Of a DNA stretch of 64,000 nucleotides, positions 3,310 through 61,885 are shown piece after piece (positions within the stretch are counted from its first letter, which is position 1; each line of letters starts with the position of its first letter). Source of the stretch: an uncultured Chloroflexia bacterium. Its GTDB lineage: Bacteria; Chloroflexota; Limnocylindria; QHBO01. The DNA is taken from positions 32,001 to 96,000 of the forward strand of contig CAWFCQ010000007.1 of the NCBI GenBank assembly GCA_963814375.1. The letters are read 5' to 3'. The notes beneath the pieces are model-generated. The model made no database searches, was not told where the DNA came from, and saw only the letters and a list, made by a program, of their open reading frames with translations. The translations under genes and the position numbers were made by a program.

Positions 3310-4572
3310 TTGAGCCGTCGCCTGGTGATCACCGTGGGAGCCGCGATCGCCGCGGTCGTTGCTGTCGCCGTCGCATTCGTGGTCTGGGGCGGCGAGGAGC
3401 CACCAGCCGCCAGCCCAACTCCGAGCGCCAGCGCGAGTCGTCAGCCATCGGCCAGCTCGAGTGCCAGCGCCAGCGCATCGGCCTCGCCTTCGGCCGCGCC
3501 GTCCGTCAGCCCGTCGCCGTCGGAAGCCGCGGGGCCACCCCAGGTTGCCTGGGAGCCTGTCGATGCCGTGGACGACGCCGCGGAGCTCTTCAACGTGGCC
3601 TTCGTCGACGGACGATGGTTTGCCGCTGGCGATATCGATGGGCTGCCAGCGATCTGGCGTAGCGGCGACGGTCGATCGTGGTCGCCGACGAACGTCACCA
3701 CGACGGTGACAGAAACCGAGTGGGCTTGGGTGTCCGACGTCGTCGCGCTGAATGGGACGCTCATCGCAATCGGTTCTTGGGGCGCCATCGAGTCCGACCA
3801 GGTCGCGTGGGCGACCTGGCGTTCCACCGACGGCGGCGCCAACTGGACCGAGGATCGGACCGATTCGGCCGCAGCCCGTGCCGTGACCGCGGGCGGACCG
3901 GGCCTGGCTGCAGCCGGGTGGGACTACTTCGGCATCTTGCCTTTCAACTCGTGGATGTCGCTGACCGCCGATGGCCAGACGTGGGCACGGGTCGACTCCG
4001 ACTCCCTTGTCAACTCGGAGGTGCATGCGCTGACCGTTCTCGGCGAACGGCTCATCGCGGTCGGTAATCGGTCAACCCCGTCGGGGTACGCGCCCGCCGC
4101 TTGGGTCTCGGACGACGCAGGGGAGACATGGCGGCTGACCGAGCCTGGCTCGCCGTCCGTCGATTCGTTGGGCTCCGTCAGCGACATCACTCTCCTCGGC
4201 GATGTGGCCGTGGCGGTCGGCCGCAGCGGCGACGCCCAAAGCAGCACACCGTTTGCATGGCTGTCCACCGATGGCGAGACCTGGCGCCAGGAGGTGATGG
4301 GCGAGGACGCCACCGCGAATGCCATCTCGGTCGTCGACGGCGGCCTCGTCGCCGTCGGTAATGGCAGCGGCCTTGATCCCGGCCCCGAGGTTGCGTGGAC
4401 CTCCGCGGACGGCATCCTGTGGGCGGAGTCGGGGCCGCTGTCGGCTGGCAGCGGCGTCCGTGGGCTGAGCGGCGCGGCCGGTGCCGGCGACGTGGTCATC
4501 GCCAGCGTCACCTGCCGAGGTGATCCGTGCGGCCCCCGTATCTGGCGCGGCGAGGTCTCGGCGGCTCCCTGA
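3310..4572 (+). CDS. Exported/membrane-anchored Asp-box (BNR) beta-propeller protein
   Basis: N-terminal TM, Ser/Pro linker, six SxDGxxW-type repeats. Confidence 0.75.
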   Translation: MSRRLVITVGAAIAAVVAVAVAFVVWGGEEPPAASPTPSASASRQPSASSSASASASASPSAAPSVSPSPSEAAGPPQVAWEPVDAVDDAAELFNVAFVDGRWFAAGDIDGLPAIWRSGDGRSWSPTNVTTTVTETEWAWVSDVVALNGTLIAIGSWGAIESDQVAWATWRSTDGGANWTEDRTDSAAARAVTAGGPGLAAAGWDYFGILPFNSWMSLTADGQTWARVDSDSLVNSEVHALTVLGERLIAVGNRSTPSGYAPAAWVSDDAGETWRLTEPGSPSVDSLGSVSDITLLGDVAVAVGRSGDAQSSTPFAWLSTDGETWRQEVMGEDATANAISVVDGGLVAVGNGSGLDPGPEVAWTSADGILWAESGPLSAGSGVRGLSGAAGAGDVVIASVTCRGDPCGPRIWRGEVSAAP

Positions 4573-4582
4573 CGGCGCGACG

Positions 4583-5396
4583 TCAGCGCACCAGGGGGAC
4601 GCGCGGATCCGGCTCCAGCGAAGCCCACGACGGCTCGCACGTGGTCGAGCGCAGGGTCGAACGAGCAGGCCATGGTTCGCACGTCGCCGGCGAGGGCGTT
4701 GAGGTAGTAGGCATCGTCGCCGTGGGTGGCGACGAACGGGTGGTAGCCGTCGCGCACGATGACGGTTTCGCCATCCCGCACCGCCCACAGGCCCTCGACC
4801 GAGCCGCCGTAGAGACGCTGAACGCCCCAGGCATCGGCGCGGCGGAACCGGTAGTGGTAGACCTCCTCGAGGATCGCCTCGCGCGGCATGTCATCGGTGT
4901 CGTGCTTGTGCGGCGGCCAGGAGCTCCAGTTGCCCGAAGGGGTGAAGACCTCGACCACCTCGAGGCGATCGGCCGGGAACTCGGGCGTGATGATGTGGTT
5001 GATCTGGCGCGTCGCGTTGCCCGCGCCACGCACCTCGACGCGGACGTCTTCCGGGCCGATCCGGACCGGCGCATCGGCCGTGGCACGCCCCGAGGCCGGC
5101 GCGCTTGCGACCGCCACCGTCAGCGGGCCGTCGAGCGGCTCGACGGTCGCGACTTGACCGGGCGGCAGGTACACCGCCGATGGCAGCCCGTCCCAGACCG
5201 ATGCGCGCCCGGCAAGCTCGAGCTGACCGACGCGGAACGCACCTCCGCCCAACCCGACGATCGCCGTTTCGGTGTCGGGAGCACCGACCTGCATCGGCTG
5301 TGACAGCTCGTGGACGGCGAACGAGAGGTAGCGCCAGCCGGCCCGCTCGGGCGTCACGACCTCGCCGGGCGGCAGGCGCAGGTCGGGATCGGTCAC
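4583..5396 (-). CDS. iolB: 5-deoxy-glucuronate isomerase, frameshift near C-terminus
   Basis: EVFTPSGNWSSWPPHKHD, EEVYHY, GYHP, YYLNALAG. Confidence 0.9.
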
Positions 5397-6465
5397 GCCA
5401 GGAGCGCCTCGCCCGACGAGGTGCAGCAGCTCGTGATACGAGCCGATGAAGGTGCGCAGCGTCTTGACGGTCGGGCCCCACGAGTCGAACTCGGAGACCG
5501 CAAGGCCGTCCGGCTCGAACGCCCGCACGAAGTCGGGCAGCGCGCGCAGCTCCTCGATGATGGGATGGATCGACCGGGTCGTCGATGCGCGGCCGAACGG
5601 CGACCGACGAGGCATTGAATCGCCGCTGCCAGGCCGGCGGCAGCGTGATGACGACGTCGCCGCCGATCAGCTCCGACCAGTGCAGCTGATGCCGGATGGC
5701 GGCGCCGAGGAGGCGAGCACGGAACCCGCGCGACGGCCACTCGGCGAGCGCACGCTTGAAGACGGCGATCCCCGACCACGGCAGCGCCGATGGGTGAACG
5801 GTGAGCCCGTCGCGGTCGACGATCTCGCGCAGCCAGTCCTCGAGGCGGCCCATCATGATCGTGATGACCGGCCCCATCCGATCGGTCGGAAGGTCCTCGG
5901 CGTCGCGGCGTCGCAGGCCGCGCTCGACGGCATCGGCGGCCGCGAGCGCCTGGGCGACGGAGAACGACACCGTCGCGTTGATGCTGATGCCGCGGTACGT
6001 CGCCTCCTCCATCGCCGCCACCCCGGCGCTGGTGGTCGGGAACTTGACGATGACGTTCGGCGCCAGCTCGGAGAAGGCGAAGGCCTGGGTCACCATGGCG
6101 GGAGCGTCGCGGAAAAGGGTCGGATCGGTCTGGATGCTGAGCCGGCCGGCGCGCCCGCCGGAGGCCTCGAAGGCCGGCATGAGCAGGGGCGCGGCTCGCA
6201 CGCTCATCTCGGCCACGATCCCCCACGCCAGCTCGCGCTCCGACCATGCGGGCTGCTCGGCGCCCAGCTGCCGCACCCGGGTGGCCCAGTGATCCGGGTC
6301 CTTGCGCCAGTTGTCGACCACGATCGTCGGGTTGGCGGTGGCGCCGACCGCGCCGAAGCCGACAGCGTAGGCGAGCTCGTCGACGTTGCAGCTGTCGTTC
6401 CAGATGTCGGTCGCGGTCTCGGCGATCGTGCGGCCGAGCGGCGTATCGGTCAGGGTGGCTGCCAT
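5393..6465 (-). CDS. Transaldolase/FSA-family protein with atypical active site, frameshifts ~5570 and ~5410
   Basis: WNDS, GATANPTIV, RLSIQTDP, NVIVKFP (Schiff-base Lys), INATVSFS, TIMMGRLEDW; coupled to iolB. Confidence 0.85.
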
Positions 6466-6503
6466 GAGTGCCCCGATGGTAGACCGCGCCTAGAATCGGG
6501 ACC

Positions 6504-8288
6504 ATGCCACCCCAGCGCCTGACCGGCGCCGAGATCGTCGTCAAGTTCCTCGCGCGTGCGGGCGTGCGACACGCGGCCGGCATCCCCGGCCACGGGGCAT
6601 GGACCCTGACCGATGCGCTCCTCGACTGTCCCGAGATCCGCACGGTCCAGGTCATGCACGAGCAGTCCGCCGTCCACCTCGCCGATGGCTACTACCGAGC
6701 GTCCGGTCAGCCGATGCTGGCCTTCACCTCCATCGGGCCCGGGGCCACGAACACGGTGATCGGGATGGCCACCGCCTACGTGGACTCCACCGCGGTCGCG
6801 CTGTTCACCGGCTCGACGCACACGTACATGCGGGGTCACGGCGTGCTCCAGGAGCTCGAGCGCCGGCACGCCGCCGACAACCCGCGCATCTTCGAGCCGG
6901 TCGTCAAGGAGTGGTGGCAGCCGTCGCGCGTGGACGACCTGCCCTTCGTCCTCCACCGCGCCTGGAATGCGATGACTACCGGGCGACCCGGCCCCGTTCT
7001 GCTCGACGTGCCGATGGACGTCCAGGCGGCGACCGCCGAGGTCAACCTCCCCGAGCTGGCGCAGCGAGAGGCGCGCGGCCGCCCACGCCCGGACGCGGAC
7101 GCCGTCGAACGCGCCGCCCGGCTGCTGGCCGATGCACGCCGCCCGGTGATCGTGGCCGGAGGCGGCGTCATCGGGGCCGACGCGACCGCCGAGCTGCGCG
7201 CCGTCGCGGAGCGGCTCGGCGCGCCGGTCGTGACGACCTGGAACGGGAAGGGCGCGATCGACGAGACCCATCCGCTGGCAGGCCAGACGATCGGCGACAC
7301 CGGATCGACCATCGGCAATGCGCTGGCGGCCACGGCCGACGTGATCCTGAGCGTCGGGTGCCGCTTCGTGGACTGGTCGACGTCCTCGTGGCGTGCGGGC
7401 GTGACCTTCGCGATCCCGCCGACCCAGCTCATCCAGCTCGACATCGACGAGCGCGAGATCGGCAAGAACTATCCCGTCGCCGTCCCGCTCGTGGCCGATG
7501 CGCGCGCCGGGCTGGCCGATCTGCTCGACGCGCTCGGAGGCGGCGAGCCGAGCACGGATTACGGCGACGAGATCGATCGGCTGCGCGAAGCCTGGCGAGA
7601 GCAGATCGAGGTGAAGTCCGGCTCCGACGCGAGGCCGATGACGATGGCGCGGGCCGTGCGGGAGGTGCAGGCCGCAACCCGGCCGGATGCGATCGTGGTG
7701 ACCGGCGCCGGCCTGCCGCAGGGCATGGTCAAGCAGCGCTGGGTCACGCGCGAGCCGCGCACCCACATCACCTCGGGTGGCTTCAGCACGATGGGCTTCA
7801 CGCTCCCCGCGGCCATCGGCGCGCAGCTGGCTCGACCGGAGGCGCAGGTGCTCGCGATCTGCGGCGACGGCGACTTCCTTCAGTCGATGCAGGAGCTCGC
7901 ATCGGCGGCGATGCTCGGGACGCCGGTCTGCACGGTCGTGCTCGACAACTCGGGCTGGATCAGCATCAAGGGCGGGCAGCAGGCGCACTTCGGCCGGACC
8001 GCGATCACCGACTTCATGCGCGACGGGGCGCCGTACTCGCCCGACTTCGGGGCCATCGGTCGCGCATTCGGTATCCACGCCGAGGTCGCCGACGCGCCCG
8101 ATGAGGTGCGACCCGCCGTCGAACGCGCCCTGGCCTCGGGCGGGCCGTCGCTCGTCCATGTGAAGGTCGACCGCGACCTGGCCGTGGCCGGTCCCGACAA
8201 GACGGGCTGGTGGGACGTGCCGGTGCCCGAGGGCCGCCCCGTCTACGACGAGCAGCTGGCCGGAAGGGCCGAGGAGCAGCACCGGTGA
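6504..8288 (+). CDS. iolD: ThDP-dependent enzyme, IolD-like trihydroxycyclohexanedione acylhydrolase
   Basis: GIPGHG, HEQSA, TSIGPGATN, VLQELE, GDGDF...DNSG ThDP motif; adjacent to iolE/iolG/iolB. Confidence 0.7.
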   Translation: MPPQRLTGAEIVVKFLARAGVRHAAGIPGHGAWTLTDALLDCPEIRTVQVMHEQSAVHLADGYYRASGQPMLAFTSIGPGATNTVIGMATAYVDSTAVALFTGSTHTYMRGHGVLQELERRHAADNPRIFEPVVKEWWQPSRVDDLPFVLHRAWNAMTTGRPGPVLLDVPMDVQAATAEVNLPELAQREARGRPRPDADAVERAARLLADARRPVIVAGGGVIGADATAELRAVAERLGAPVVTTWNGKGAIDETHPLAGQTIGDTGSTIGNALAATADVILSVGCRFVDWSTSSWRAGVTFAIPPTQLIQLDIDEREIGKNYPVAVPLVADARAGLADLLDALGGGEPSTDYGDEIDRLREAWREQIEVKSGSDARPMTMARAVREVQAATRPDAIVVTGAGLPQGMVKQRWVTREPRTHITSGGFSTMGFTLPAAIGAQLARPEAQVLAICGDGDFLQSMQELASAAMLGTPVCTVVLDNSGWISIKGGQQAHFGRTAITDFMRDGAPYSPDFGAIGRAFGIHAEVADAPDEVRPAVERALASGGPSLVHVKVDRDLAVAGPDKTGWWDVPVPEGRPVYDEQLAGRAEEQHR

Positions 8289-9181
8289 GCCTGCGCGACG
8301 CGCCCGTCGGCTACGTGCCGATCGTCTGGAACAACGCCGACCTCTTCGATCTCGCGCCCGAGACGGCGGCGGAGACGGTGCTCGACGAGATCGCGCGCAT
8401 CGGCTATTCGGGGACCCAGTTCGGCCGCGGCTTTCCCGAGGGCGAGGAGCTGCGCGGCGAGCTCGAGCGTCGCGGGCTGCGATTGGCCGAGCTGTACTCG
8501 GCGCTGGGCTCGTCGCCGCAGGGCCTTGGGCCGGATGCGGCGCGGACCGCGCACCACGACCTGGCACGTCTGAAGGCGGCGGGAGGCGAGGTCCTGGTCG
8601 TGGCCCTCGACGGCGGAGGGGAGCGCGACGAGTGGAGCGGGCGCGTCGCCGATGGCGCACCTCGATGGCCCGACCGCGCCTTCGACGAGCTCGGCGCTCT
8701 GCTCGGCCGGTTGGCCGAGGCGGCGCCCGAGGGCGTCCGTGTCGCCTTCCACCCGCACCTGGCGACATGGATCGAGGCGCCCGACGAGGTGGATCGGCTG
8801 GCGGCCGCGCTGGAGGGGACCGGAGCCGGGCTGTGCCTGGACGTGGGCCACTATCTCGCGGGCGGCGGCGACCCGGTCGAGGCGATTCGGCGCCACGGGG
8901 ACCTCGTCACCCACGTCCATCTCAAGGACGTCGATCCGGCAGTCCTCGAGCGACTCAGGGCCGGCGAGCTCGAGAGCCTGGCGCTGGCGACCCGTGAGCG
9001 GATCTTCACCGAGCTCGGCAACGGGGCGCTCGACCTCGACGGCGTACTGCGCGAGCTCGACCGCGCCGGGTTCACCGGCTGGATGATGGTCGAGCAGGAT
9101 TCCTCGTGGCTGCCGCCGTCGGAGGCCGCGGCCATCGGCAGGCGCGTCCTGCGCTTCGCCATGCGAAGGCTCGAGGCGTGA
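8285..9181 (+). CDS. iolE: myo-inosose-2 dehydratase (TIM barrel)
   Basis: PIVWNN, FHPH, LDVGH, HVHLKD, FTELGNG, GWMMVEQD. Confidence 0.8.
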   Translation: MSLRDAPVGYVPIVWNNADLFDLAPETAAETVLDEIARIGYSGTQFGRGFPEGEELRGELERRGLRLAELYSALGSSPQGLGPDAARTAHHDLARLKAAGGEVLVVALDGGGERDEWSGRVADGAPRWPDRAFDELGALLGRLAEAAPEGVRVAFHPHLATWIEAPDEVDRLAAALEGTGAGLCLDVGHYLAGGGDPVEAIRRHGDLVTHVHLKDVDPAVLERLRAGELESLALATRERIFTELGNGALDLDGVLRELDRAGFTGWMMVEQDSSWLPPSEAAAIGRRVLRFAMRRLEA

Positions 9182-10185
9182 AGGTCGCCGTCGTCGGCGC
9201 CGGCACCATGGGCGCCCTCCACGCTCAGCTGCTGGCCGAGACCGAAGACGTCGAGACCGTGCTCGTCGTCGACGTCGATCAGGGTCGGGCAAGCGAGGAG
9301 GCGGCGCGCATCGGCGGACGGGCGGCCTCCTTCGAGGAGGCGCTGACGGAGGCCGATGCCGTCGTGATCTCAACGCCGCCGCAGTTCCACGAGCAGCAGG
9401 TCACCGCCGCGATCGAGGCGGGCCTCCACGTCATGTGCGAGAAGCCGCTGACCGACCGCCTGGACTCGACGCTGGCGCTGGCGGAGCGCATCGAGTCGGA
9501 GGGCGCGCACGTCGAGGTCGGCTTCCAGCGACGCCACGATGCCGGCTTCCGCAGGGCACGCGAAGGGATCTCGGGCCGCATCCACGTCGTGCGGCTGACC
9601 GCGCACGATCCGATCGGATCGCCGCAGCCGCCACCTTCCGGCGACCCACCGGAGACCGCGCCGATCTTCCGCGACTCGTCGATCCATGACTTCGACGTCG
9701 TCCGCTGGCTCACCGGGCAGGAGGTCACCGAGGTCGCGGTCGAGGCCGGCCGCCGCGATGGGCGACGCCCCACCGATCCGCGCGAGATCGAGAGCGCGGG
9801 GGTGACGATGCGGCTGTCGGGCGGCGGGATCGCGATCCTGGAGGCGAGCTGGCTGCATCCGGCCGGCTACGACGTCCGGCTCGAGGTCATCTCCGAGGGC
9901 TCGGCGGTGAGCGGCGGCCTCTCGGCGCGCACGCCGACGCGCCACGCCGACTGGGACGAGCCCAACGCCGGCTGGGCCGGCTACCTCGAGCGGTTCGAGG
10001 CTGCCTATCGGGCCGAGCTCGTCGACTTCCTGGCGTGCTGCCGGGGCGTGCGTCCCGCCTTCAGCACCGCGCGAGACGGCGTCGAGGCGATGCGGATCGC
10101 CGTCGCCGCGACCCGAGCGTTCTCGGAGCGTCGCCTCGTGCGGCTCGACGAGATCCCTGGTCTCCCGCGGCGAGAGGTGGCCTGA
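9178..10185 (+). CDS. iolG: Gfo/Idh/MocA inositol 2-dehydrogenase
   Basis: GAGTMG, CEKP, GFQRRHD, DSSIHDFD, GYDVRLEV. Confidence 0.8.
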   Translation: MKVAVVGAGTMGALHAQLLAETEDVETVLVVDVDQGRASEEAARIGGRAASFEEALTEADAVVISTPPQFHEQQVTAAIEAGLHVMCEKPLTDRLDSTLALAERIESEGAHVEVGFQRRHDAGFRRAREGISGRIHVVRLTAHDPIGSPQPPPSGDPPETAPIFRDSSIHDFDVVRWLTGQEVTEVAVEAGRRDGRRPTDPREIESAGVTMRLSGGGIAILEASWLHPAGYDVRLEVISEGSAVSGGLSARTPTRHADWDEPNAGWAGYLERFEAAYRAELVDFLACCRGVRPAFSTARDGVEAMRIAVAATRAFSERRLVRLDEIPGLPRREVA

Positions 10186-10220: not shown

Positions 10221-10261
10221 CGTCTCTGGTACCGTCGATGAGACCGCCCAAGGAGCACCTC

Positions 10262-11601
10262 GTGGCCGCCTTCTTTCCCGATGCCCCGGACCGGGTTCCG
10301 TTCGCCGGGCTCGACTCGCCGGAGCCCTTCGCCTACAAGGTCTATGAGCCTGATCGTCAGGTGCTGGGCAAGCGCATGGAGGACCAGCTGCGGATCGCGG
10401 TCTGCCTCTGGCACTCGTTCAACTGGCCTGGCTCCGACGTCTTCGGCGTCGGGACGTTCGATCGGCCCTGGCTGGCCCCGGCGTCGACCCGACCGAGGGC
10501 TCGCGCGCCAAGATCGACGCCGCATTCGAGTTCGTCGCCAAGCTCGGCGTCCCCTACTTCACCTTCCACGACCGCGACGTCGCTCCGGAGGGCGGGAGCT
10601 TCGGTGAGACGATCGCCATGCTCGACGCCGCGGTCGAGATGATCGAGGCCCACATGGAGCGGACCGGCATACGGCTTCTGTGGGGCACGGCCAACCTGTT
10701 CAGCCACCCGCGCTACGCGGCCGGAGCTGCCACGAACCCGGACCCCGAGGTGTTCGCCTACGCCGCCGCGCAGGTGAAGCACATGCTCGAGACGACGCAT
10801 CGGCTCGGCGGGGCGAACTACGTGCTGTGGGGCGGACGCGAGGGCTACGAGACGCTCCTCAACACCGACCTGGCGCGAGAGGAGGCTCAGCTCGCTCGCT
10901 TCCTGACGCTCGTCGCCGAGCACAAGCATCGCATCGGCTTCGAGGGCATGCTTCTTCTCGAGCCCAAGCCGCAGGAGCCGACCAAGCACCAGTACGACTA
11001 CGACTCGGCGACGGTCGACTCCTTCCTCGTGCGCCACGACCTCGCGGGCGAGTACCGCGTCAACATCGAGGCGAACCACGCCACGCTCGCCGGGCATAGC
11101 TTCGAGCACGAGGTCGCGGTCGCCGTCAGCCGCGGAATCTTCGGCAGCATCGACATGAACCGCGGCGATCCCCAGAACGGCTGGGACACCGACCAGTTCC
11201 CGAACTCCGTCGACGAGCTCGCGCTCGCCGTCTACGAGATCCTGCGCGGCGGCGGGTTCACGACCGGTGGCTTCAACTTCGACGCCAAGCTCAGGCGCCA
11301 GAGCATGGACCGCGCCGATCTCTTCCACGCCCACATCGGCGGGATCGACACCCTCGCGCGGGCGCTCCTGGTGGCCGCCGCGCTCGTCGAGAAGGGCGAC
11401 CTCGCCGATGAGAAGGAGCGCCGATACGCCGGCTGGGCCGACGGCCTCGGTGCGGAGATGCTCGAGGGCGGTCTGTCGCTTGGCGACATCGAGGCGCGCG
11501 TCGCCGGTGGAGGGATCGATCCTCGACCTCGCTCGGGCAGCCAGGAACGCCTGGAGAACATCGTCAACCAGCGCATCTGGTCGGCCGACCGGGACCGCTG
11601 A
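10262..11601 (+). CDS. xylA: Xylose isomerase (class II), frameshift ~10480
   Basis: AAGGAG RBS; [59 protein letters not shown]. Confidence 0.95.
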
Positions 11602-11604
11602 GCG

Positions 11605-13115
11605 GTGGGATCCCACGTTCTCGGGATCGACGTCTCGACCACCGCGACCAAGGCGATCCTCGTGGACGAGGCTGGCACCGTGGCGGGCGTCGGATCGGCG
11701 GAGTACGACTTCGCGGTTCCCGCGCCGCTGTGGAGCGAGCAGGACCCCGAGCTGTGGTGGAGCGGCGCGCAGGTCGCCATCCGCGCCGCGCTGAACACCG
11801 CCGGCATCTCCGGCACCGACGTCGCGGCGATCGGGCTGACCGGCCAGATGCATGGCGCCGTGCTCCTCGACGACGCCGATCGGCCGCTTCGGCCGGCCAT
11901 CCTGTGGAACGACCAGCGCACCGCCGCGGAGTGCGACGAGATCCGCGAGCTGGTTGGGCCGCGACGCCTGATCGAGATCACCGGCAACGATGCGCTCACC
12001 GGCTTCACCGCGCCGAAGCTGCTGTGGGTGCGCCGCAACGAGCCGGACACGTGGGCGCGGGTCGCGCACGTCATGCTGCCGAAGGACTACGTTCGCCTGC
12101 GGCTGACCGGCGAGCACGCCACTGACCGGGCCGATGCCGCGGGCACCCTGCTTCTCGACCTGGCCGCCCGCGACTGGTCAACCGAGGTGCTCGACGCGCT
12201 CGACATCGAGCCGGCGATCCTGCCGCGTACCTTCGAGGGCCCCGAGGTCACCGGACACATCACCGCCGAAGCGGCCGATGCGACCGGGCTGCGCGCCGGC
12301 ACCCCGGTCGTGGCCGGCGGTGGCGACCAGGCGGCGAACGCCGTCGGCGTCGGAGCGATCGACGAGGGGGTGGTGGCGCTCTCGCTCGGCACATCCGGCG
12401 TGGTCTTCGCCGCCACGGCACAGCCAATCATCGAGCCCGCCGGGCGAGTCCATGCCTTCTGCCATGCGGTGCCGGATCGCTGGCACCTCATGTCGGTCAT
12501 GCTCTCGGCCGCCGGCAGCCTGCGCTGGTTCCGCGATGCCCTCGCGCCCGGCGTCGAGTTCGCCGCCCTGGCCGACGAGGCAGCCGGCGTGCCTGCCGGC
12601 GCTGACGGGCTCCTCTTCCTCCCCTACCTCAGTGGCGAGCGCAGCCCGCACGCGGATCCGCTGGCGCGCGGCGCGTTCATCGGCCTCACGGTGGCCCACG
12701 AGCGGCGGCATCTGACGCGTGCCGTGCTGGAAGGCGTCGCCTTCGGACTGCGCGACGGGCTCGACCAGATGACCGCGACCGGTGTCCCCGCGCCCCACCA
12801 GATCCGCGCCTCCGGGGGCGGCATGGCCAGTCCGCGTCTGGCGCCAGATCCTGGCCGACGTCCTCGTCGCCGAGATAGCCGCCGTCGGGACAGCCGAGGG
12901 TGCCGCCTATGGCGCAGCTCTGCTCGCCTCGGTCGGCGCCGGCTGGTTCACGAGCCTCGAAGAGGCGGCGAGTAGGGTCGTGCGAGTGACGCCGGTCGCC
13001 GCACCGGGCGCCGACGCGCAGGTGTACGTCGACGCTCTCGAGTGCCTATCGATCCCTCTATCCGGCCCTGGCGCCGATGTTCCACCGCGAGGTCACATCG
13101 GCGGCAGAGGGCTAG
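11605..13115 (+). CDS. xylB: Xylulokinase, frameshifts ~12835 and ~13045
   Basis: [51 protein letters not shown]. Confidence 0.93.
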
Positions 13116-13927
13116 CCCTTCAGCTCCTCGAGCTCCTCGCGCGTCGCCTCGTCCGGCTTCTTGCCCAGGATGATCATCGCGAGCACGTCGTCGGTCGTGA
13201 CGTCCTCCTTCCTCATCGTTCCCACCAGGCGACCGTGGTACATCACGCTGATCCGATCCGACAGATCGAAGACGTCGTGGATGTCGTGGCTGATGAGGAA
13301 GATGCCGATCCCCTCGGTCTTCAGCTGACGGATGAGATCGCGCACCTGGGCTGTCTCGGCCGGCCCGAGAGCGGCAGTCGGCTCGTCCATGATGAGGATC
13401 TGCGCGTTGAAGTGGACCGCGCGGGCGATGGCGACCGCCTGGCGCTGGCCGCCGGAGAGCGACTTCACCGGCATCGCGAACCGCGTGAAGTTCGGGTTCA
13501 GCCTCCCCATCACCCTGCGAGTCGCATCTTCCATGGACCCTTCGTCGAGCGTCCTCCACCAGGTCTGCATCTCGCGACCGAGGAAGACGTTGCCCGGCGC
13601 GTCGATGTTGTCAGCCAGGGCGAGCGTCTGGTAGATGCATTCGATGTTGAATGCCTTCGCGTCGCGCGGGTTGCTGATCACCCGGGGCTCGCCGTTGATG
13701 CGGATCTCGCCGGAGTCTGCGGCGTGCGCGCCGGAGAGCGTGCGAATTAGGGTCGATTTGCCGGCGCCGTTGCCACCGACCAGGCCGACCACCTCGCCCG
13801 GGTAGAGGTCGATGCTGACGTCGTCGACGGCATGCACACCGCCGAAGGCGACACGGATGTTGCGCATCTCGACGAGCGGCACACGCTCAGCTCCGTTCGG
13901 CGCGGTGACTGGCGCCTCGGCCGTCAT
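13112..13927 (-). CDS. xylG: Sugar ABC transporter ATP-binding protein (single domain)
   Basis: [27 protein letters not shown]. Confidence 0.85.
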
Positions 13928-15249
13928 GTGCCACCCCCGCGCCGACGGTTATACGTGTCGAGGCCAACGGCGATGATGAGGACAATGCCGGCCACCACGT
14001 TCTGGGTCGGGGAGTTGACGCCGTTGTAGCTCATCCCGTAGGCCAGCGACTGCATGACGAACGCGCCCAGCACGGCACCGGGGATGGTGCCGATGCCTCC
14101 CGCGAACGACGTGCCACCGACGACGGCGGCGGCGATGACGTAGAGCTCGTCGCTGGAGCCCACGTCGAGGGTCGACCCGTTAAGCCGTGCGGACGAGATC
14201 GCAGCGGCGATCGCGCAGAGGACCCCCATCAGCATGAAGGTCTTCATGATCGTCCAGCGGGTGTTGATGCCCGCCAGCTCGGCGGCGTCGGGATTGCCCC
14301 CGTAGGCGTAGACGTATCGCCCGAAACGCCGCCGGGTAGCGATGAAGGTCATCACGACTGTCACCGCGATGACGAGGATGACCGGCCATGGGAAGCCGAC
14401 CGAGATCTTCAGGCCGCCCGGAGGCTCGGTGATGCCGTTCGCCTGCGCGTACTGGGTGGCGAGGCCCGCCGGCCAGAAGTTGGCGTTGGCGAACGCGACG
14501 ACGCCGATGACGATCGCGCAGCCCAGGACGCCGAGGAGCACCTCCGCCCACATCGGCCTCACCGGAAATCCGAACTTCTGGCGCTGGCGACGGCTGTTGA
14601 CGAGCAACGCGATGATCGCGATGCAGCCGACGATGCCGAGGACCCACGTCAGGAGCCCGCCGATCGAGCCCACCGCGCCGCCCCCGATGAGGCGGAAGTT
14701 GCTGTGCAGCCCAGATACGGCGGCGCCGCTAGAGAGCAGCCACACCGAGCCGCGCAGGGAGAGGAGGCCGCCGAGCGTCACGATGAAGGAGGGGACGCCG
14801 ATGTAGGCGATGATGAAGCCCTGGAAGCCGCCGATGAAAGCCCCCAGGCCGACTCCCAGCAAAAGGGCGACGATCCATTGGATGGGGTTGTCCAACCCGA
14901 GCCCGAGAGCCGGCAGCCAATCGGTCTGGAGCAGCGCGTAGACCATCGCCACGACGCCGACGATCGATCCCACCGACAGGTCGATGTTCCGCGACACGAT
15001 GATCAGGACCATGCCGGTCGCCATGATGGCCGTGCCCGATGCCTGGACCGCGAGCGTGACCATGTTGGCCGGCCGTAGGAACGTGCCGCCCGACACGATG
15101 TGGAAGCCGAGGAGGATGACCGCCAGCGCGACCAGCATGCCAAACAGGCGCAGGTCGATCTCGGTCTTCGAGAGCGTCTCGCGCACCGATCCCCGCGGGG
15201 CCGGTTGTGCCTGACCCGGCACCGGAGCCGCGTCGGCTACGTCAACCAA
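13924..15249 (-). CDS. xylH: Sugar ABC transporter permease
   Basis: [34 protein letters not shown]. Confidence 0.85.
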
Positions 15250-15278
15250 TTCGGGGTGCCTCCCCCGTGTGATGGAAG

Positions 15279-15313
15279 TGCCCTGGCCCGCGGCATGGCT
15301 GCGGGCCAGGGCA
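15279..15313 (-). terminator. Intercistronic hairpin after the binding-protein gene (stabiliser or partial terminator)
   Basis: TGCCCTGGCCCGC-N9-GCGGGCCAGGGCA, perfect 13-bp stem. Confidence 0.65.
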
Positions 15314-15338
15314 TCAGTCGACGGATCTGGTCAGGCTG

Positions 15339-16523
15339 CTACTGGCAGGCCGCCGGCGCGCTGGCCGCGTCGACGCCCTCGCACAATTCATCCTGGGTGA
15401 GCCACCCGGAGTCGATGATCAGGTCCAGGTTCTCCTGGGTGATCGGCTGCGGCTTCAGGATGAACGAGGTGATCTCGTTCTCGTCACCCGAATCCGGCTC
15501 TCCATCCGGACCCGGGGTCGTGAACGGGGCGGCCGTGAGGCCGGCTTCCGGCGCCACCGCGTCGTTGACCGTTCCTTCCGGAAGCGTGATGTCCGCCATC
15601 GCCGTGCCCTCGCACAGCTGCAGCGCCGCGGCGCCGGCGACCTTCCCGAGCTCGTTGGCGTCCTTCCAGACGTCCACGTACTGGAGACCCTGGGCCACAT
15701 TCTGCAGGTTCGCGGTGTCACCGTCCTGGCCGCTGACAGGGATCGTGTCGTAGTTCTTCGCCTGGAGTGCCGCAACGACGCCCAGCGCCGTGCTGTCGTT
15801 CTCGGCCAGCACCGCGTCGATCTGGACGTCCTGGTCATTGGCGGCGTCGATGATCGCCTCCATGTTGTTCTGGGCCGTCTCGGTGTCCCACGCGTCGGTG
15901 AACTGATCGTCGAAGATCTCGATCTCACCGGCGTCGATCTTGTCCTGGAGGCCCGCGTTATCCCAGCCCTGCGGCAGGAAGATGGAGGCGTTCGGGTCGC
16001 CCGGATCGCCCTTGATCAGGACGTACGTACCCTCCGGCACGGCCTCGAACATGGCCTCGGCCTCGGCCTCGCCCACGCCCACGTTGTCAAATGTGATGTA
16101 GAGAAGCTCGGGATCCTCGATCAGGCGGTCGTACGCGATGACCGGGATGCCGGCATCCTTGGCGGCCTGGACGCCCGGCAGCACCGCCTGGTTGTCCTGC
16201 GCCAGGAGGATGAGGACATCGATATCCTGGTTGATGAACGTCTCGATGTCGGTCAGCTGCTGCTCGGTGTCGAGATTCGCGTCGGCGTCGGTGTAGGTGC
16301 CGCCACCCGCCTCGACCGTCTCCTGGATGTTTGGCTTGTCCTTCGCCGCCCAGCGCGGCTGCTGGAAGTTGTTCCACGAGACCGCGACTGAGCAGTCACC
16401 GCTGGCCGCCTGTGATCCGCCGCCGTCAGAACCGGCGGGCTCGGACGCGTCACCCTCGCCGCCGCAAGCAGCGAGCACAAGGGCAAGCGTGCCCAGCGTC
16501 GCCGCCATCCTCCGAATCATCAT
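15339..16523 (-). CDS. xylF: Sugar (xylose-type) ABC substrate-binding lipoprotein
   Basis: Lipobox LAAC; RWAAKD, VIAYDRLI, FDNVGVG, GDPGDPNA, SGQDGD. Confidence 0.85.
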   Translation of the reverse strand: MMIRRMAATLGTLALVLAACGGEGDASEPAGSDGGGSQAASGDCSVAVSWNNFQQPRWAAKDKPNIQETVEAGGGTYTDADANLDTEQQLTDIETFINQDIDVLILLAQDNQAVLPGVQAAKDAGIPVIAYDRLIEDPELLYITFDNVGVGEAEAEAMFEAVPEGTYVLIKGDPGDPNASIFLPQGWDNAGLQDKIDAGEIEIFDDQFTDAWDTETAQNNMEAIIDAANDQDVQIDAVLAENDSTALGVVAALQAKNYDTIPVSGQDGDTANLQNVAQGLQYVDVWKDANELGKVAGAAALQLCEGTAMADITLPEGTVNDAVAPEAGLTAAPFTTPGPDGEPDSGDENEITSFILKPQPITQENLDLIIDSGWLTQDELCEGVDAASAPAACQ

Positions 16524-16678
16524 TCCGAAAGCTCCTCCATCAAGATCCCCCGCCGTTTTGCTTACTTCTCAGTTTTGCCTTGCGTAGGCTACTCCTCTGT
16601 CAAGCCCTCCTCCTCCATTCGTTCGCCTTCGCCGTGGTTGGTCCCGAAGCGCGGGCCGAGCCGTCCAAGGGGCGCGCG

Positions 16679-17911
16679 TCATGCGCTCGCCAGTTCCGGT
16701 CGATGCGCACCGGCGGACGCCAGCCGCCACGCCGGGTCGGTGAGCATCGGCTCGAACGCGAGCTCGGCGGCGCCGATGATCGGCGCGTTGACGCCGAGAG
16801 CGGCGGGCACCACTCGCACGAGGGACCGAGAGGCCGGCAACGCGCGACGCTCAAGCGCCGCGCGCAGCCCGTCCAAGACCAATGGATGAATCCGTCCCAG
16901 CACGCCGCCCAACACGACCAGCGTGGGGTTGAAGATATTGACGAGCGACACCACGCCGATGCCGAGCCACTCCCCGAGTCGCTCGATGCTGGCGCTCGCG
17001 GCGGGTTCCCCAGCAATCGCGGCGTCGATGAGCTCGTCGACCGCTGCGCGTCCACCGGTCGCGGACCGTCCCGACATTGAGAGCATGGCGCGCTCGCCGA
17101 TCTCGGTCTCCCAGCAGCCGAACGAGCCGCACGCGCAGGCCTTGCCTCCGGGATTGACGATCATGTGCCCGATCTCGCCCGCGTAGCCTGCCGCGCCCAC
17201 CAGCGCCCGACCACCGACCGTCACGCTGCCGCCAACACCGACCTCGCTCGCCACGTAGACCACGTCCGCCTCTCCGACCGCCGCGCCCCGCCTATGCTCC
17301 GCCAGCCCACCGAGGTCGGCCTCGTTGGCGATCGCAAGCGGCACGTTGGGTCGAAGGGCCTCCGCGACACGCTGGCCAAGCGGCACGTCGTGCCAGCCGA
17401 GGTTCGGAGCGAGGCGAACGAGGCCATCGCTGCGGCGGACGATGCCGGCCACACCGAGGCCGATGCCGACAAGGCCATCGTCGCCCGCATCGAGCATTGG
17501 CCGGGCCAGCTCAGAAAGGTCGGCGACGATCTGATCAACGGTGACGTGCGCTCGCGGCCGGTCGACGCGGACGAGCTCGTGAATCGTTCCGCCGAGCCCG
17601 ACCCTGGCGGCGGCGAGGGAGTCGACGTTGATCTCGAGGCCCACCACCCAGGCCGCATCGGGGTTCGGATGGACCAGGGGCGAGGGCCGGCCCGGGACGC
17701 CGGCCGGCTCGTTGCGGCTCTCGACGAGGAGACCGCCACGCACGAGCTCGCCGACGAGGGTGCGGATCGCCGAACGGGTCAGGCCGGTATGGGCGACCAG
17801 CTCGGACCGCGACAGCGGGCCGCGAAGGTGCAGCGCTCGGACGATCGCGCTCAGGTTCGATCGCCGCACCGTCTCGCTGCGCTGGCCGACCACTTCCCGA
17901 GGCGTGAACAT
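16679..17911 (-). CDS. ROK-family transcriptional repressor (XylR-like)
   Basis: HTH VRRSN...SRSEL, GRP linker, NEADL, AGEIGH, CACGSFGCWE. Confidence 0.9.
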   Translation of the reverse strand: MFTPREVVGQRSETVRRSNLSAIVRALHLRGPLSRSELVAHTGLTRSAIRTLVGELVRGGLLVESRNEPAGVPGRPSPLVHPNPDAAWVVGLEINVDSLAAARVGLGGTIHELVRVDRPRAHVTVDQIVADLSELARPMLDAGDDGLVGIGLGVAGIVRRSDGLVRLAPNLGWHDVPLGQRVAEALRPNVPLAIANEADLGGLAEHRRGAAVGEADVVYVASEVGVGGSVTVGGRALVGAAGYAGEIGHMIVNPGGKACACGSFGCWETEIGERAMLSMSGRSATGGRAAVDELIDAAIAGEPAASASIERLGEWLGIGVVSLVNIFNPTLVVLGGVLGRIHPLVLDGLRAALERRALPASRSLVRVVPAALGVNAPIIGAAELAFEPMLTDPAWRLASAGAHRPELASA

Positions 17912-17916
17912 CAGAG

Positions 17917-17937
17917 TTTGTGTTCCTCTCATCCAAA
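17917..17937. promoter_or_regulatory. Candidate ROK operator between the repressor and the divergent Gfo operon
   Basis: TTTGT-N11-CCAAA, same architecture as 10200-10220. Confidence 0.5.
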
Positions 17938-18004
17938 TGTTGTCGTAGACTCGTCCATCGGCGCGGGACCTGTCAATACGTCTGCATGGAGGTCAACGTC
18001 ACGG

Positions 18005-19000
18005 ATGCGACGGCTGCGCTGGGGAGTGCTCTCGACGGCCGCCATCGGCCGCCTGAAGGTGATACCGGCCATCCAGAAGGGCGAGCACTGCGAAGTGGTT
18101 GCCATCGCCTCCAGAGATCTGGCCCTCGGCAAGAAGGTGGCGTCAGAGCTGGGCATCCCCACCGCTCACGCTTCGTACGAAGCCCTGCTGGCCGACCCCG
18201 GCGTGGAGGCGGTCTACATCCCGCTGCCGAACCACCTCCATGCCACCTGGGCCATCGCCGCCGTGGAGGCGGGCAAGCATGTCCTCTGCGAGAAGCCATT
18301 GGCGCTGACCGCCGCCGATGCCGAGCGCATGATCACGGCCGCCGATCGCGCGGGTGTCCACCTGATGGAGGCCTTCATGTATCGGCTCCACCCGTCATGG
18401 GTCGCGGTGCGTGAGCTGGTCGCGTCCGGGCGGATCGGAGCGCTGACCGCGGTCCAGAGCTGGTTCTCGTATTACAACGACGATCCGGCGAACATCCGCA
18501 ACATCCTCGAGGCTGGCGGCGGCGCGCTCTATGACATCGGCTGCTACAGCATCAACCTGTCGCGGATGCTCTTCGACGCCGAGCCAGACCGCGTCGAGGG
18601 GATCGTCGTGCGCGACCCGTCGGGGGGGATCGATACCCTCACGAGCGGCATCCTCGGTTTCGGCAGCGGCATCGCCAGCTTCACCTGCTCCACGCGCGCG
18701 GAGGACGATCAGCGGGTCCACGTCTACGGCACCACTGGACGCATCTCGATCGAGATCCCGTTCAACATTCCTCCCGATCGACCCACGCGCATCCATGTCA
18801 CGGCCGGCGGCGATCCGCCGGTAGCTCCCCTGACCGAGACCCTGACATTCGCCACGGCCGACCCCTACACGGTCGAGGCCGATGCGTTCGCCGCCGCGGT
18901 CCTGGAAGACCGCCCCGTACCGGTGCCGCCGAGCGATGCGGTTGCCAACCTGCGGGTCATCGAGCGGCTGCTGGCCTCCGCCGAGCCGACGTCCGCCTGA
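18005..19000 (+). CDS. Gfo/Idh/MocA oxidoreductase (sugar dehydrogenase-like)
   Basis: WGVLSTA, YIPLPNHLH, CEKPL, MEAFMYR, GGGALYDIGCY. Confidence 0.9.
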   Translation: MRRLRWGVLSTAAIGRLKVIPAIQKGEHCEVVAIASRDLALGKKVASELGIPTAHASYEALLADPGVEAVYIPLPNHLHATWAIAAVEAGKHVLCEKPLALTAADAERMITAADRAGVHLMEAFMYRLHPSWVAVRELVASGRIGALTAVQSWFSYYNDDPANIRNILEAGGGALYDIGCYSINLSRMLFDAEPDRVEGIVVRDPSGGIDTLTSGILGFGSGIASFTCSTRAEDDQRVHVYGTTGRISIEIPFNIPPDRPTRIHVTAGGDPPVAPLTETLTFATADPYTVEADAFAAAVLEDRPVPVPPSDAVANLRVIERLLASAEPTSA

Positions 19001-41237: not shown

Positions 41238-41280
41238 CGCATCGAGCGCGAGGCCCGAGCTCAGCTGGAGGTGAGGACTC

Positions 41281-42793
41281 TTGGCCACCATCACCGCGCC
41301 CAACGTAGGATCCGAAGCACGGACCTACGACTACAAGATCCCATTCGTGATCGGCGCATCCGCCATCGGCACGGTCATCGAGTGGTACGACTTCTACCTG
41401 TACGCCGTGCTCGCCACCTTCCTGGCGCCGATCTTCTTCCCCGGCGACCCGACGGCACAGGTGCTGAGCGCGCTGGCGACATTCGGCGCCGGCTTCGCGG
41501 TACGGCCGTTCGGCGCGATCGTGTTCGGTCGCATCGGTGACAAGACCGGCCGCAAGGTCGCGTTCCTGCTCACGGTCGCGATCATGGGTGGAGCGACCGT
41601 CCTGGTCGGGTTGCTCCCGGGGTACGCCCAGATCGGCATCCTCGCGCCGATCATCCTCGTCACGCTCCGGATGCTGCAGGGCCTCGCGCTCGGTGGCGAG
41701 TACGGCGGCGCGGCGATCTACGTCGCAGAGCACGCGCCGGATCGGAAGCGCGGGCAGTACACGTCGTGGATCCAGACAACGGCGACTGTCGGGCTTTTCC
41801 TTGCCCTCGCCGTGATCCTCTTCTTCCGCGTCACTCTCGGTGACGAGGTGTTCGCAGCGTGGGGCTGGCGCATCCCGTTCCTGCTGTCGGCGGTGCTCGT
41901 GATCGGCGCGCTCTACATTCGCCTGCGGCTGCAGGAGACGCCCGCTCTTCACGCGGGCCAAGGAGCAGGGCAAGACGTCCGAGTCCCCGCTCAAGGACAG
42001 CCTGGGCAACCGCCGCAACTGGGGGCTCATCCTGCTCGCCCTCTTCGGCATGACGGCCGGACAGGCGGTGGTCTGGTACACGGGCCAGTTCTACGCGCTG
42101 TCGTTCATGACCGGCCCGCTGGGCGTCGGCTTCGTTGACGCCTACACGGTCATGCTCATCGCGATCGCGCTGGCGACACCGCTCTTCATCTTCTTCGGCT
42201 GGCTGTCCGACAAGATCGGACGCAAGCCGATCATCCTCGGCGGCTGCCTGCTGGCGGCGCTCGCCTACTTCCCGATCTTCAACGCGATGAAGGGCTTCGC
42301 CAATCCGATCGCGGAGAGCGATCCGGCGACGCCGGCCATCGCGGTGGCCCAGGACCCGAACCTCTTCGGCCTGACTGCGATGGTGTTCATCATGATCGTG
42401 CTCGTCACGATGGTGTACGGGCCGATCGCCGCCTTCCTGGTCGAGTTCTTCCCGACGCGGGTGCGCTACACGTCGCTCTCGCTTCCCTACCACCTCGGAA
42501 ACGGTGAGTTCGGCGGCTGGCTGCCGTTCATCGCCACGGCGATGACCGCCGCGGCCGTGGCCGGCGGCATGTTCGCGGGGCTGGCAACCGTCACGCCTGG
42601 CGGCGCCATGTTCGTCGGACTCTGGTATCCGATCGCCGTGGCGGTGATGACGCTCATCATCGGCGGCCTCTGGATCCGGGAGACGAAGGACGTCCGGATC
42701 TGGGACGAGGTCGGCGGCCACCACGACGAGGTGGATGTCGAGCCGACGACGACCCACGAGGACGCACGGACCGGCGGCGCACTCGCCGGCTGA
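41281..42793 (+). CDS. MFS transporter, MHS family, frameshift ~41945
   Basis: IEWYDF, RPFGAIVFGRIGDKTGRK, GGEYGG, VRYTSLSLPYHLGNG. Confidence 0.9.
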
Positions 42794-55374: not shown

Positions 55375-56647
55375 TCAGGCCGGTTCGGACCGCTCCTCGG
55401 GTGGCTTGGCCTCGTCGTCGCCCGACGCGGCGTCCTCGGCCAGGCGGTCGGCGGCGAGCGCGACGACCTCCTCGGGCGGGGCGTCGGGCTGCTCGCTGCG
55501 CACCTCCTCGAGAACCTCCTCCAGCTCGGCCTTCGGCGCGTCCTCGATCGTTCGCAGGTTGACCGCGTAGTTGAAGAAGACGTTCAGGACCGCGAAGATC
55601 GGAATGGCGAAGAGGGCACCCCACAGCCCGGCAATCTGTGCCCCGACCAGCAGGCTCACCAGCACGAGGATCGGATGCATTCCGAGGGCGTCGCGCATGA
55701 GCTTGGGCTGGAAGTAGTTCACGAGCACGGTCTGGACGACGAGGAGCAGGGGCGCGACGACGATCAGCCATTCAGGTTTGAAGATCGCGGTCGCCAGGAT
55801 CGGCGGCACCAGGGCCAGCGGCGGGCCGAAGAACGGGATCAGCATGGCCAGCGCCGAGGCCACCACGATCAGGAAGCCGTACGGAAGACCGACGAGCAGC
55901 ACGACCGCGATCGTGAGCGCCGTCTGGATTCGCGGCCAGGACGACCTGCGCTCGCAGGAATCCGCCGAAGGCCGTCGAGACGGTGCGTTCGAGGATCTCC
56001 GCCTCTTCCGCGTATCGGTTCGGGACGATCCGATTCATCCTGGCGACGATCGCCGTGCTGTCGGCGAGCATGTAGAGGCTGAGGATGATCACGAGCACGA
56101 GCGCTCCGAGGATCGCAACGGTGACGGCGGGCGCCTCCCCGAGCGCCGACTGCGCCAGCCGCAGCGCGGTCGCCTCGACGTCGCGGTAGAGGACGACCAG
56201 GTCCGGCGCAAATTCGCCGAATGAGATCGAGCTCTGCCAATCGGCCAGGGTGGCCTCGATGCGCTCACGAGTCTGCGGGAAGTCCGAGGCCGCCTCCCCA
56301 ACCGACGCGCCGATGGCCGAGGCCGCATAGAAGAGGAGAATCCCGCTGCCGACCAGGGTCGCGGCGTAGACGATGCCGACCGCGACACCTCGCCGCAGGC
56401 CTGCGCGCTCCACGAGCCACGCCACCACCGGCGACAGGACGAAGGCAAGCAGCCAGGCCATGAACACGATGAGGAAGATCTGCGCGAAGCCGCCGAGGAC
56501 CTGAAGGAGAAGGCCGAACAGCAGCAGGCCCACGTAGATCGTGCCCACGATGAGCAGGGCGGACAGCCACCAGCGGTCGCGCCGTCGCCGCGCGCTCGTG
56601 TCCTTCGCTCGGTTGTTTCCGGCCGGCTTCGCCGTTTGCTTCGCCAT
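55375..56647 (-). CDS. AI-2E family transporter, frameshift ~55925
   Basis: LSPVVAWL, FGGFLRAQ, IPFFGP, MHPILV, GLWGALFAIP. Confidence 0.88.
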
Positions 56648-56726
56648 CTCGTGGCGCAGTCTGCACGTCGCTGTCCAGCTCGGCAGTGCGCGCAGAACGA
56701 GCCCCGCTTCCGTGGGCTCAAGTTGC

Positions 56727-56758
56727 GCAGGGCGCAACCAATGGCGGTTGCGCCCTGC
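56727..56758. terminator. Hairpin downstream of amidase (no U-tract)
   Basis: GCAGGGCGCAACC-N6-GGTTGCGCCCTGC, perfect 13-bp stem. Confidence 0.55.
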
Positions 56759-56766
56759 CGTCCTAG

Positions 56767-61836: not shown

Positions 61837-61885
61837 TCTTCGGATCGCGGTCGCCACCCGCACCTGAGGCGTTAGCCTGTGCCAC

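Follow-up and report, generated by a model that had tools for sequence, protein, structure and literature searches.

How does a bacterium complete the catabolism of myo-inositol when neither the kinase nor the aldolase of the lower pathway is found in its genome? The question is raised by a stretch of 64,000 nucleotides (G000:C7:32001-96000, here called the window), part of a genome of 2.52 Mb in 8 contigs, with ~70% G+C, that is 89% complete, a limit that applies to every absence reported below for this genome. In soil, inositol released from phytate and plant lipids serves as an important carbon source, its catabolism is a textbook pathway for genome annotation, and the Limnocylindria are abundant Chloroflexota of soil and freshwater. 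The canonical pathway, as known from Bacillus subtilis and Salmonella, runs through IolG, IolE, IolD, IolB, IolC, IolJ and IolA. On the minus strand of the window, iolB (5-deoxy-glucuronate isomerase, GTG start, 5396 to 4583) follows a gene of the transaldolase/fructose-6-phosphate aldolase (TAL/FSA) family (6465 to 5393), here called the TAL gene, and the close homologues of its product carry the source label Candidatus Limnocylindria, phylum Chloroflexota. From gene identities, a conserved synteny, a distribution complementary to that of iolC and conserved active-site residues, we lean towards the reading that this enzyme cleaves 2-deoxy-5-keto-D-gluconate (DKG) in a variant pathway for inositol or a close cyclitol, replacing IolC together with IolJ. 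The locus would then point to an undescribed way of completing the inositol pathway.

The iolB-linked gene and the missing kinase and aldolase

Gene identities were taken from Pfam and NCBIfam scans of filtered open reading frames (ORFs), a filter that may have dropped some genes, with TIGR04377-04382 as the models of the iol families. The product of the TAL gene matches PF00923 with 115.7 bits (cut-off 27) over its N-terminal 300 residues, and iolB reaches 232.5 bits with TIGR04378 (cut-off 205), which makes it the only gene of the upper iol set at equivalog level. As the first-pass annotation of this DNA had stated, no iolC, iolJ or iolA lies inside the window, and the best whole-genome matches are found on other contigs or outside it. 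The search of the rest of the genome which that annotation had proposed was equally negative for the kinase: no match to TIGR04382 reaches the cut-off, the best being a ribokinase-like PfkB protein at 93 bits. DUF2090 (PF09863) was not found, and tblastn with the IolC of Clavibacter and its DeoC-like aldolase gave no match. For the class II aldolases (PF01116) there is one weak match of 52.9 bits (G000:C3:35936-36745), where the chosen ORF matches no NCBIfam model. Dak1, glycerol kinase and a full phosphoenolpyruvate (PEP)-utilising homologue were also searched for and not found. The last enzyme of the pathway is encoded on the same contig, ~160 kb away, by an iolA gene (methylmalonate-semialdehyde dehydrogenase, MMSDH, 732.7 bits).

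The pairing with iolB is widely kept among relatives. In 68 of 80 relatives' loci, iolB lies less than 800 nt downstream of the TAL gene and in the same orientation, and 11 of the remaining 12 end less than 1 kb past the TAL gene; 68 of the 69 informative loci thus have the pair, and a single one (L085) is truly without iolB. A class sample of 151 Limnocylindria genomes yielded 60 copies of the enzyme in 52 genomes. In that sample, 34 of the 60 copies share a strand with an iolB no more than 3 kb distant; the TAL gene comes first in 24 of them (TAL>iolB) and iolB in the other 10 (iolB>TAL), which are more divergent (48-63% identity). The surrounding clusters resemble inositol loci: one (L100) holds an iolD-like gene, iolE, iolG, an ATP-binding cassette (ABC) importer, LacI, iolB and TAL, and in another (L055) LacI, an ABC importer whose binding protein is rhizopine-type, iolG and iolE face TAL, iolB and two aminotransferases. 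In one group of relatives (L055, 11871-17081), the genes after the TAL-iolB pair encode a DegT-type aminotransferase, two levoglucosan-dehydrogenase-like Gfo/Idh/MocA enzymes and a class III aminotransferase. The aminotransferases and the rhizopine-type binding protein of loci of this type suggest an aminocyclitol as the substrate in that group. The LacI regulator and the inositol-type importer of the relatives' clusters are absent at this place in the window. The spread of the enzyme was examined in Chloroflexota and on one Actinomycetota plasmid. In the phylum sample outside Limnocylindria it occurs in 9 of 301 genomes, and the gene orders in other Chloroflexota classes include iolD-iolB-TAL with a canonical iolD (L134), iolA-TAL-iolD-iolB-iolG (L136), iolB-TAL (L141) and TAL-iolB (L142).

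The distribution of the enzyme is complementary to that of iolC. Among the 85 class-sample genomes that bear iolB, the enzyme occurs without an iolC at cut-off in 38 and a cut-off iolC without the enzyme in 35; no genome combines the two, and 12 lack both (6 of these 12 have a sub-cut-off iolC-like match). Counted by family, with thresholds of E<=1e-60 for the enzyme and E<=1e-40 for the iolC model, family f1 has the enzyme in 19/50 genomes, the iolC model in 0/50 and iolB in 15/50; for family f2 the figures are 0/49, 42/49 and 41/49, and for family f3 32/44, 7/44 and 27/44. These tallies include six genomes flagged as unpublished (G067, G087, G091, G106, G112 and G123), the removal of which would shift each count by no more than 2-3; locus L126 derives from G087. 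In f2, a sister family within the same class, the clusters are canonical, with an iolD (925 bits) and an iolC (385 bits) that each adjoin iolB, and the enzyme is never present. An iolC above the curated cut-off was found in none of the 61 Chloroflexota carrier genomes (0/9 outside Limnocylindria). The co-occurrence with iolB and the anti-correlation with iolC that had been put forward as a check are therefore seen in the 38 and 35 genomes without overlap, and they break down in the 14 of 52 carriers that have no iolB and on the Clavibacter plasmid pCI3, which has both genes.

Active site and fold of the enzyme

Intact orthologues of the enzyme are 353-358 aa long, and the window copy is 85-89% identical to two of them, P0005 and P0006, which both end in ...HLVGEALLA; PF00923 is carried by all the homologues listed. 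Residues were compared by alignment with E. coli TalB and FsaA, both taken from NC_000913.3, and are given in TalB numbering. Asp17, Asn35, the Schiff-base Lys132, Thr156, Arg181 and Arg228 are kept, and at three positions the residue is replaced, with Gln for Glu96, Met for Phe178 and Ala for Ser226. FsaA likewise has Gln at the Glu96 position. The motifs SIQTD and IMMGR, which hold the first two replacements, are present in the window's own translation, and the Schiff-base Lys, Asp17, Asn35 and Thr156 are invariant in a 34-sequence alignment (A1). The alignment thus bears out the residue readings made at first pass, namely a retained Schiff-base Lys, Gln for Glu96 as in FsaA, and Met for Phe178. 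The accompanying statement, that the enzyme fits neither class, stands for the Gln/Met pair, which differs from that of TalB, and for the scores, which lie below both classes; its FSA half depends on the catalytic Tyr131 of FSA, which we take to occupy the Phe178 position, FsaA being unaligned in that region.

All curated models for classical transaldolases are missed by far: 95.9 bits against 367 for NF002881, 65.4 against 233.75 for TIGR00876 and 32.8 against 396 for TIGR00874. An intact orthologue, that of locus L084, does hardly better against the transaldolase model (102.3 against 367). The FSA model TIGR00875 is missed as well (52.2 bits against 245.95); the Gln of an FSA-type enzyme is present, but position 178 is Met and the length is 353-358 aa against ~220 aa. 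The AlphaFold model of the enzyme has a mean confidence (pLDDT) of 96.4, and Foldseek places it nearest, among solved folds, to the long transaldolases of N. gonorrhoeae and C. glutamicum (template-modelling (TM) score 0.81, E 2.5e-17), with TM scores of ~0.67-0.69 to the TalB entries. By its profile score, its conserved active-site residues and its (beta/alpha)8 barrel, the protein belongs to the TAL/FSA superfamily, yet its residues and scores are neither those of a classical transaldolase nor those of an FSA.

These features define a subfamily of some breadth. The representative search (1.84 billion) returned 293 clusters at E<=1e-30, and the signature D-N-Q-K-T-M-R-[AGS]-R is present in 28 of the 47 full-length representatives at 50% identity, reaching down to ~30% identity. 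Only Ser25, Gln112 and Met204 are specific to the subfamily, in the sense of being at least 90% conserved and unlike both classical transaldolases compared. The ESM Atlas returned only 'transaldolase family' clusters. A quick tree, the only one made, was used for the long branch to the classical enzymes and for the TAL>iolB clade. The genome of the window encodes another transaldolase (on C2, PF00923 264.8 bits), and this one has Glu96 and Phe178. A natural fusion, P0135 (655 aa), joins an AP_endonuc_2 domain (an IolE/IolI-type TIM barrel, residues 32-290) to a subfamily TAL domain (residues 320-605) that is 41% identical to P0006. A second candidate fusion, P0125 (566 aa, with TAL and KduI domains in one chain), was rejected, as it looks like a frameshift read-through of the kind seen in the window.

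The proposed route and its alternatives

The genes divergent from the TAL gene could supply the upper pathway. Beyond an intergenic region of 38 bp by ORF coordinates (6466-6503), the plus strand carries an acetolactate synthase (ALS)-like thiamine pyrophosphate (TPP) enzyme, the iolD-like candidate for the ring-opening hydrolase (6504-8288; TIGR04377 334.6 bits against 715), an iolE-like inosose dehydratase (8210-9181; TIGR04379 171.1 bits against 290) and an iolG-like Gfo/Idh/MocA dehydrogenase (9106-10185; TIGR04380 220 bits against 355). Family scans and coordinates agree here with the divergent iolD-like, iolE and iolG genes described earlier for this locus, with the three scores below the NCBIfam equivalog cut-offs. 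The true starts of the second and third genes are probably near 8297 and 9178, as the profile matches begin at ORF residues 33 and 25. The TPP enzyme is the top match of the genome to the iolD model, and no match in the genome reaches the cut-off. It is outscored by acetolactate-synthase models, and its neighbours in the PDB are acetolactate synthases (~252 bits), with cyclohexane-1,2-dione hydrolase at 172 bits. A divergent copy of it lies within 5 kb of the TAL gene in 51 of the 80 relatives' loci. The divergent TAL and TPP start codons are 38 bp apart in the window against ~117 bp in L084, which leaves scant space for two promoters and their leaders. Adjoining iolG is a xylose block (10238-18997) with xylA, xylB, an ABC ATPase, a permease, an xylF-like binding protein, a ROK regulator and a Gfo/Idh/MocA dehydrogenase. 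On the other side, convergent with iolB, a plus-strand gene (3310-4572) encodes a protein of 420 aa in which a hydrophobic segment at the N-terminus is accompanied by a linker rich in Ser, Ala and Pro and by repeats of 'S-x-D-G-x-x-W'-like motifs; no Pfam match was found for it.

We hypothesise an upper pathway of conventional type, in which an IolG-like dehydrogenase, an IolE-like dehydratase, the ALS-like TPP ring-opening enzyme and IolB would lead to DKG. The free CH2OH-CO- end of DKG has the D-threo configuration, as in fructose, and is the ketose end that TAL enzymes cleave. Since DKG has this D-threo dihydroxyacetone end, a TAL-type cleavage between C3 and C4 can be envisaged: the conserved Lys would form a Schiff base with the free dihydroxyacetone end, and the cleavage would yield malonate semialdehyde and an enzyme-bound dihydroxyacetone unit. 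This C3 unit would most likely be passed to glyceraldehyde 3-phosphate (GAP), giving fructose 6-phosphate (F6P). We favour transfer over release because the fold is that of the long transaldolases, position 178 is not Tyr, and neither a dihydroxyacetone kinase nor a glycerol kinase was found. The malonate semialdehyde could then go to the MMSDH/IolA encoded elsewhere on the contig. Such a route would be kinase-free without saving ATP; its net ATP cost should equal that of the canonical route, since the F6P formed still needs one ATP at phosphofructokinase.

As assembled, both the TAL gene and iolB are frame-broken, and three one-base breaks within 1.9 kb, overlooked in the first-pass annotation, were located by three-frame translation, from the DNA and by tblastn of intact orthologues. 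All three are on the minus strand. In the TAL gene, one extra base stands in a C run at 5560-5564 (~5562, run CCC) and another in a G run at 5411-5414 (~5412, run GGG), 6 codons before the stop. Frame 1 of the gene covers residues 1-~300 of P0005 (6465 to ~5563), frame 2 residues 303-351 (5558 to 5412), and frame 3 the final EALLA and the stop. The third extra base lies in the 3' end of iolB at 4629-4634 (~4632): the gene is in frame from its GTG at 5396 to ~4635, and the last ~16 residues (...SWASLEPDPRVPLVR) and the stop at 4583 are in another frame. The L084 orthologue, of which residues 1-256 out of 272 are 78% identical to the window protein, ends in ...DAWEAMAPDPRVPLVP. The translational coupling of the TAL gene to iolB claimed in the first-pass annotation is real in intact relatives, as in L084, where the TAL frame runs to 11074 and the iolB start at 11071 gives a 4-base overlap; in the window the corresponding GTGA overlap of stop and start appears only after the frames are corrected.

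The breaks could mean that the TAL gene and iolB are decaying pseudogenes here and that the pathway is dead, as would befit three frame breaks in 1.9 kb and a 99% identical protein from another record, P0004, that is likewise truncated. We regard decay as quite unlikely, and the frame breaks as most likely assembly errors, because of four observations. A short-read contig from a soil run (X2; 220 letters, 10 other letters, ~95% alike) omits one letter at 5560 and one at 5412, although no short-read contig spans the third break. Other window genes are similarly split between frames in the family scans: an MFS sugar transporter (41275-42790), an AI-2E transporter (55378-56854), the gene of an AlaX-like editing protein (61868-62610) and xylA (10238-11601), with xylB (11602-12972) also affected at its 3' end, being split or truncated against its profile. 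Together, these split or truncated genes suggest that one-base errors are frequent in the assembly. The break in P0004 falls elsewhere, as expected of random errors, and split iol genes occur in only four relatives' loci (L014, L027, L030 and L048), which all belong to a single series of few-contig assemblies. Further signs of decay are lacking, and identity to the intact orthologues is 78-89%. In the search of sequencing runs the shares were at most 0.12, and we draw no claim of habitat or strain from them; an RNA run (X11) gave one 196-letter contig on the TAL gene with 2 other letters, which we do not take as proof of transcription.

Several observations weigh against the replacement of IolC and IolJ by the enzyme. 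The complementary pattern tracks family boundaries (f2 versus f1 and f3), and it therefore reflects few independent events. In two Limnocylindria genomes, G110 and G098, an iolC-like kinase (259.7 and 226.8 bits, sub-cut-off) lies beside an iolB copy and the enzyme is present as well, and 7 of the 38 genomes with enzyme and iolB have some sub-cut-off iolC-like match. A family member with 50% identity and the complete signature is encoded on plasmid pCI3 of Clavibacter michiganensis subsp. insidiosus. Its gene, behind a GntR gene of divergent orientation, borders a canonical cluster that comprises iolC, the gene of a DeoC-like aldolase, an apparently truncated iolA, iolB, iolD, iolE and iolG. 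In the class sample, 26 of the 60 copies are not beside iolB, and the 14 carrier genomes without any iolB have their copies in another conserved cluster. As these iolB-free copies are interleaved with the iolB>TAL copies in the quick tree, the family is not tied to IolB alone. For its acid/base chemistry the enzyme has neither the Glu of transaldolases nor the Tyr of FSA; the sub-cut-off scores of the iolD-, iolE- and iolG-like genes mean that the true substrate may be another cyclitol. To these must be added the frame-broken state of both genes as assembled and the incompleteness of the genome.

The Clavibacter plasmid deserves particular attention, as the co-occurrence of the enzyme with iolC and an aldolase had been named beforehand as the finding that would speak against the idea. 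Such a co-occurrence exists once, on pCI3, against none among the 61 Chloroflexota carriers when iolC is counted at cut-off, and a swap of the enzyme for iolC as a strict rule is contradicted by this one plasmid. The pCI3 locus (L115) corresponds to NZ_CP021037.1 18886-43911. Its iolA frame aligns to the MMSDH profile only from position 117 onwards and has no entry in the gene table of the plasmid, so it may be a pseudogene.

The copies away from iolB have a context of their own. We fetched 22 such loci, and 18 of them, all from Limnocylindria (L110-L113, L116-L125 and L128-L131), share a second conserved cluster with a three-subunit molybdenum enzyme resembling xanthine dehydrogenase (XDH), GntR and a PRK08296-type PEP-utilising enzyme facing TAL, often joined by a split transketolase and a gene resembling pyruvate phosphate dikinase (PPDK). 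Most genomes with this second cluster have no iolB. MMSDH directly follows TAL in six of the 22 loci (L112, L116, L119, L123, L129 and L130) and lies ~1.3 kb away in a seventh (L133). These copies weaken the notion of an IolB-specific enzyme, yet they independently tie the family to malonate semialdehyde.

Three other accounts of the enzyme itself have to be considered. It could be an FSA-like true aldolase, releasing malonate semialdehyde and free dihydroxyacetone from DKG with no acceptor. The Gln shared with FsaA at the Glu96 position would suit this activity, and so would the PRK08296-type enzyme beside TAL in 18 of the 22 non-iol loci, although its phosphorylating the released product is speculation. 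We nevertheless find an aldolase unlikely, given Met at 178 in place of the Tyr of FSA, the fold and length of long transaldolases instead of the 220-aa FSA type, the distant TIGR00875 score, and a genome in which Dak1, glycerol kinase and a full PEP-utilising homologue were not found. About equally improbable in our judgement is a cyclitol or sugar-acid enzyme acting on a ketose other than DKG (for example an aminocyclitol-derived one or another deoxy-keto acid), which would not be a one-for-one replacement of IolC and IolJ. This account gains from the sub-cut-off iolD-, iolE- and iolG-like genes and a TPP enzyme nearer to ALS models, from the aminotransferases and rhizopine-type binding protein in some clusters (L055), from the many copies in iolB-free clusters and from the joint presence with iolC in Clavibacter. 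It is harder to reconcile with an iolB that passes the equivalog cut-off in the window and in relatives, with the adjacency to iolB in two gene orders and in the canonical-iolD clusters L134 and L136, and with the adjacency to MMSDH, which fits malonate semialdehyde as product.

The enzyme could also be an ordinary pentose-phosphate transaldolase paralogue, there by chance or serving the adjoining xylose genes, and the xylA, xylB and xylFGH-like genes with their ROK regulator do stand directly beside iolG. A match to XylA or XylB was found beside the enzyme in 0/80 relatives' loci, however, so the xylose block is not conserved there. Glu96 and Phe178 are present in the other, separate transaldolase of the genome, every curated transaldolase model is far from its cut-off, and the catalytic Glu96 is replaced throughout the subfamily, all of which makes a paralogue of this kind very improbable. 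The IolC-bypassing cleavage of DKG advanced in the first-pass annotation accordingly keeps the support of synteny and of the complementarity with iolC, and is held back by pCI3, by the kinases of G110 and G098 and by the 26 copies away from iolB. A wider proposal, to which we give an even chance, is that the Gln96/Met178 proteins are DKG:GAP glyceronetransferases that form a widespread lower branch free of IolC and IolJ, act also in a second malonate-semialdehyde pathway, and make up a third mechanistic class of the TAL/FSA fold.

Comparison with known pathways and enzymes

If the proposed cleavage of DKG is correct, it would be a new reaction for the TAL/FSA family and a second natural example of the logic of the sulfo-TAL pathway, and the Gln96/Met178 pair could serve as a marker to re-annotate hundreds of 'transaldolase family proteins'. 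A literature search, mostly at abstract level and with subscription journals outside its scope, found no paper linking a transaldolase to inositol catabolism. A survey of inositol clusters requires iolB, iolC, iolD and iolE as core genes, and its main text, taken without the supplements, contains the word 'transaldolase' 0 times (PMC9430895). Surveys built on these core genes, such as that one by its main text, would miss the organisms described here.

Compared with the canonical iol pathway, the locus has the same upper enzyme types, an iolB at equivalog level and an MMSDH/IolA in the genome, and the expected end products are likewise a triose-level unit and malonate semialdehyde. It differs in that no IolC, DUF2090 or IolJ-type aldolase was found, in that an ALS-like TPP protein stands as ring opener in place of a canonical IolD (334 bits, cut-off 715, and 925 bits in the sister family), and in that a TAL-family gene is coupled to iolB. 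A parallel is offered by the sulfo-TAL pathway, in which a logic of isomerase, transaldolase and aldehyde dehydrogenase has been shown for sulfofructose, with GAP or erythrose 4-phosphate (E4P) as acceptor (PMC7491151). There, as would be the case here, an isomerase yields a ketose that combines an anionic tail with a free dihydroxyacetone end, and the transaldolase (SftT in that pathway) passes the C3 unit to GAP or E4P and frees an acidic C3 aldehyde for a dehydrogenase; for our locus the likeness lies in the gene logic. Unlike SftT, the enzyme would act on a substrate whose tail is a carboxylate and not a sulfonate. SftT is moreover of the short, ~220-aa type, and BmSF-TAL (8bc3) matches P0006 weakly (E 1.4e-5), whereas the present enzyme is a 355-aa long form.

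With E. coli TalB the enzyme shares the TIM barrel (TM ~0.67-0.69) and the residues Lys132, Asp17, Asn35, Thr156, Arg181 and Arg228, and with FsaA the Gln at position 96. It departs from both in combining Glu96 to Gln with Phe178 to Met, which is the pair of neither, in having Ala for Ser226 and in missing all curated cut-offs. Its gene is also embedded in catabolic operons and not in the pentose-phosphate pathway.

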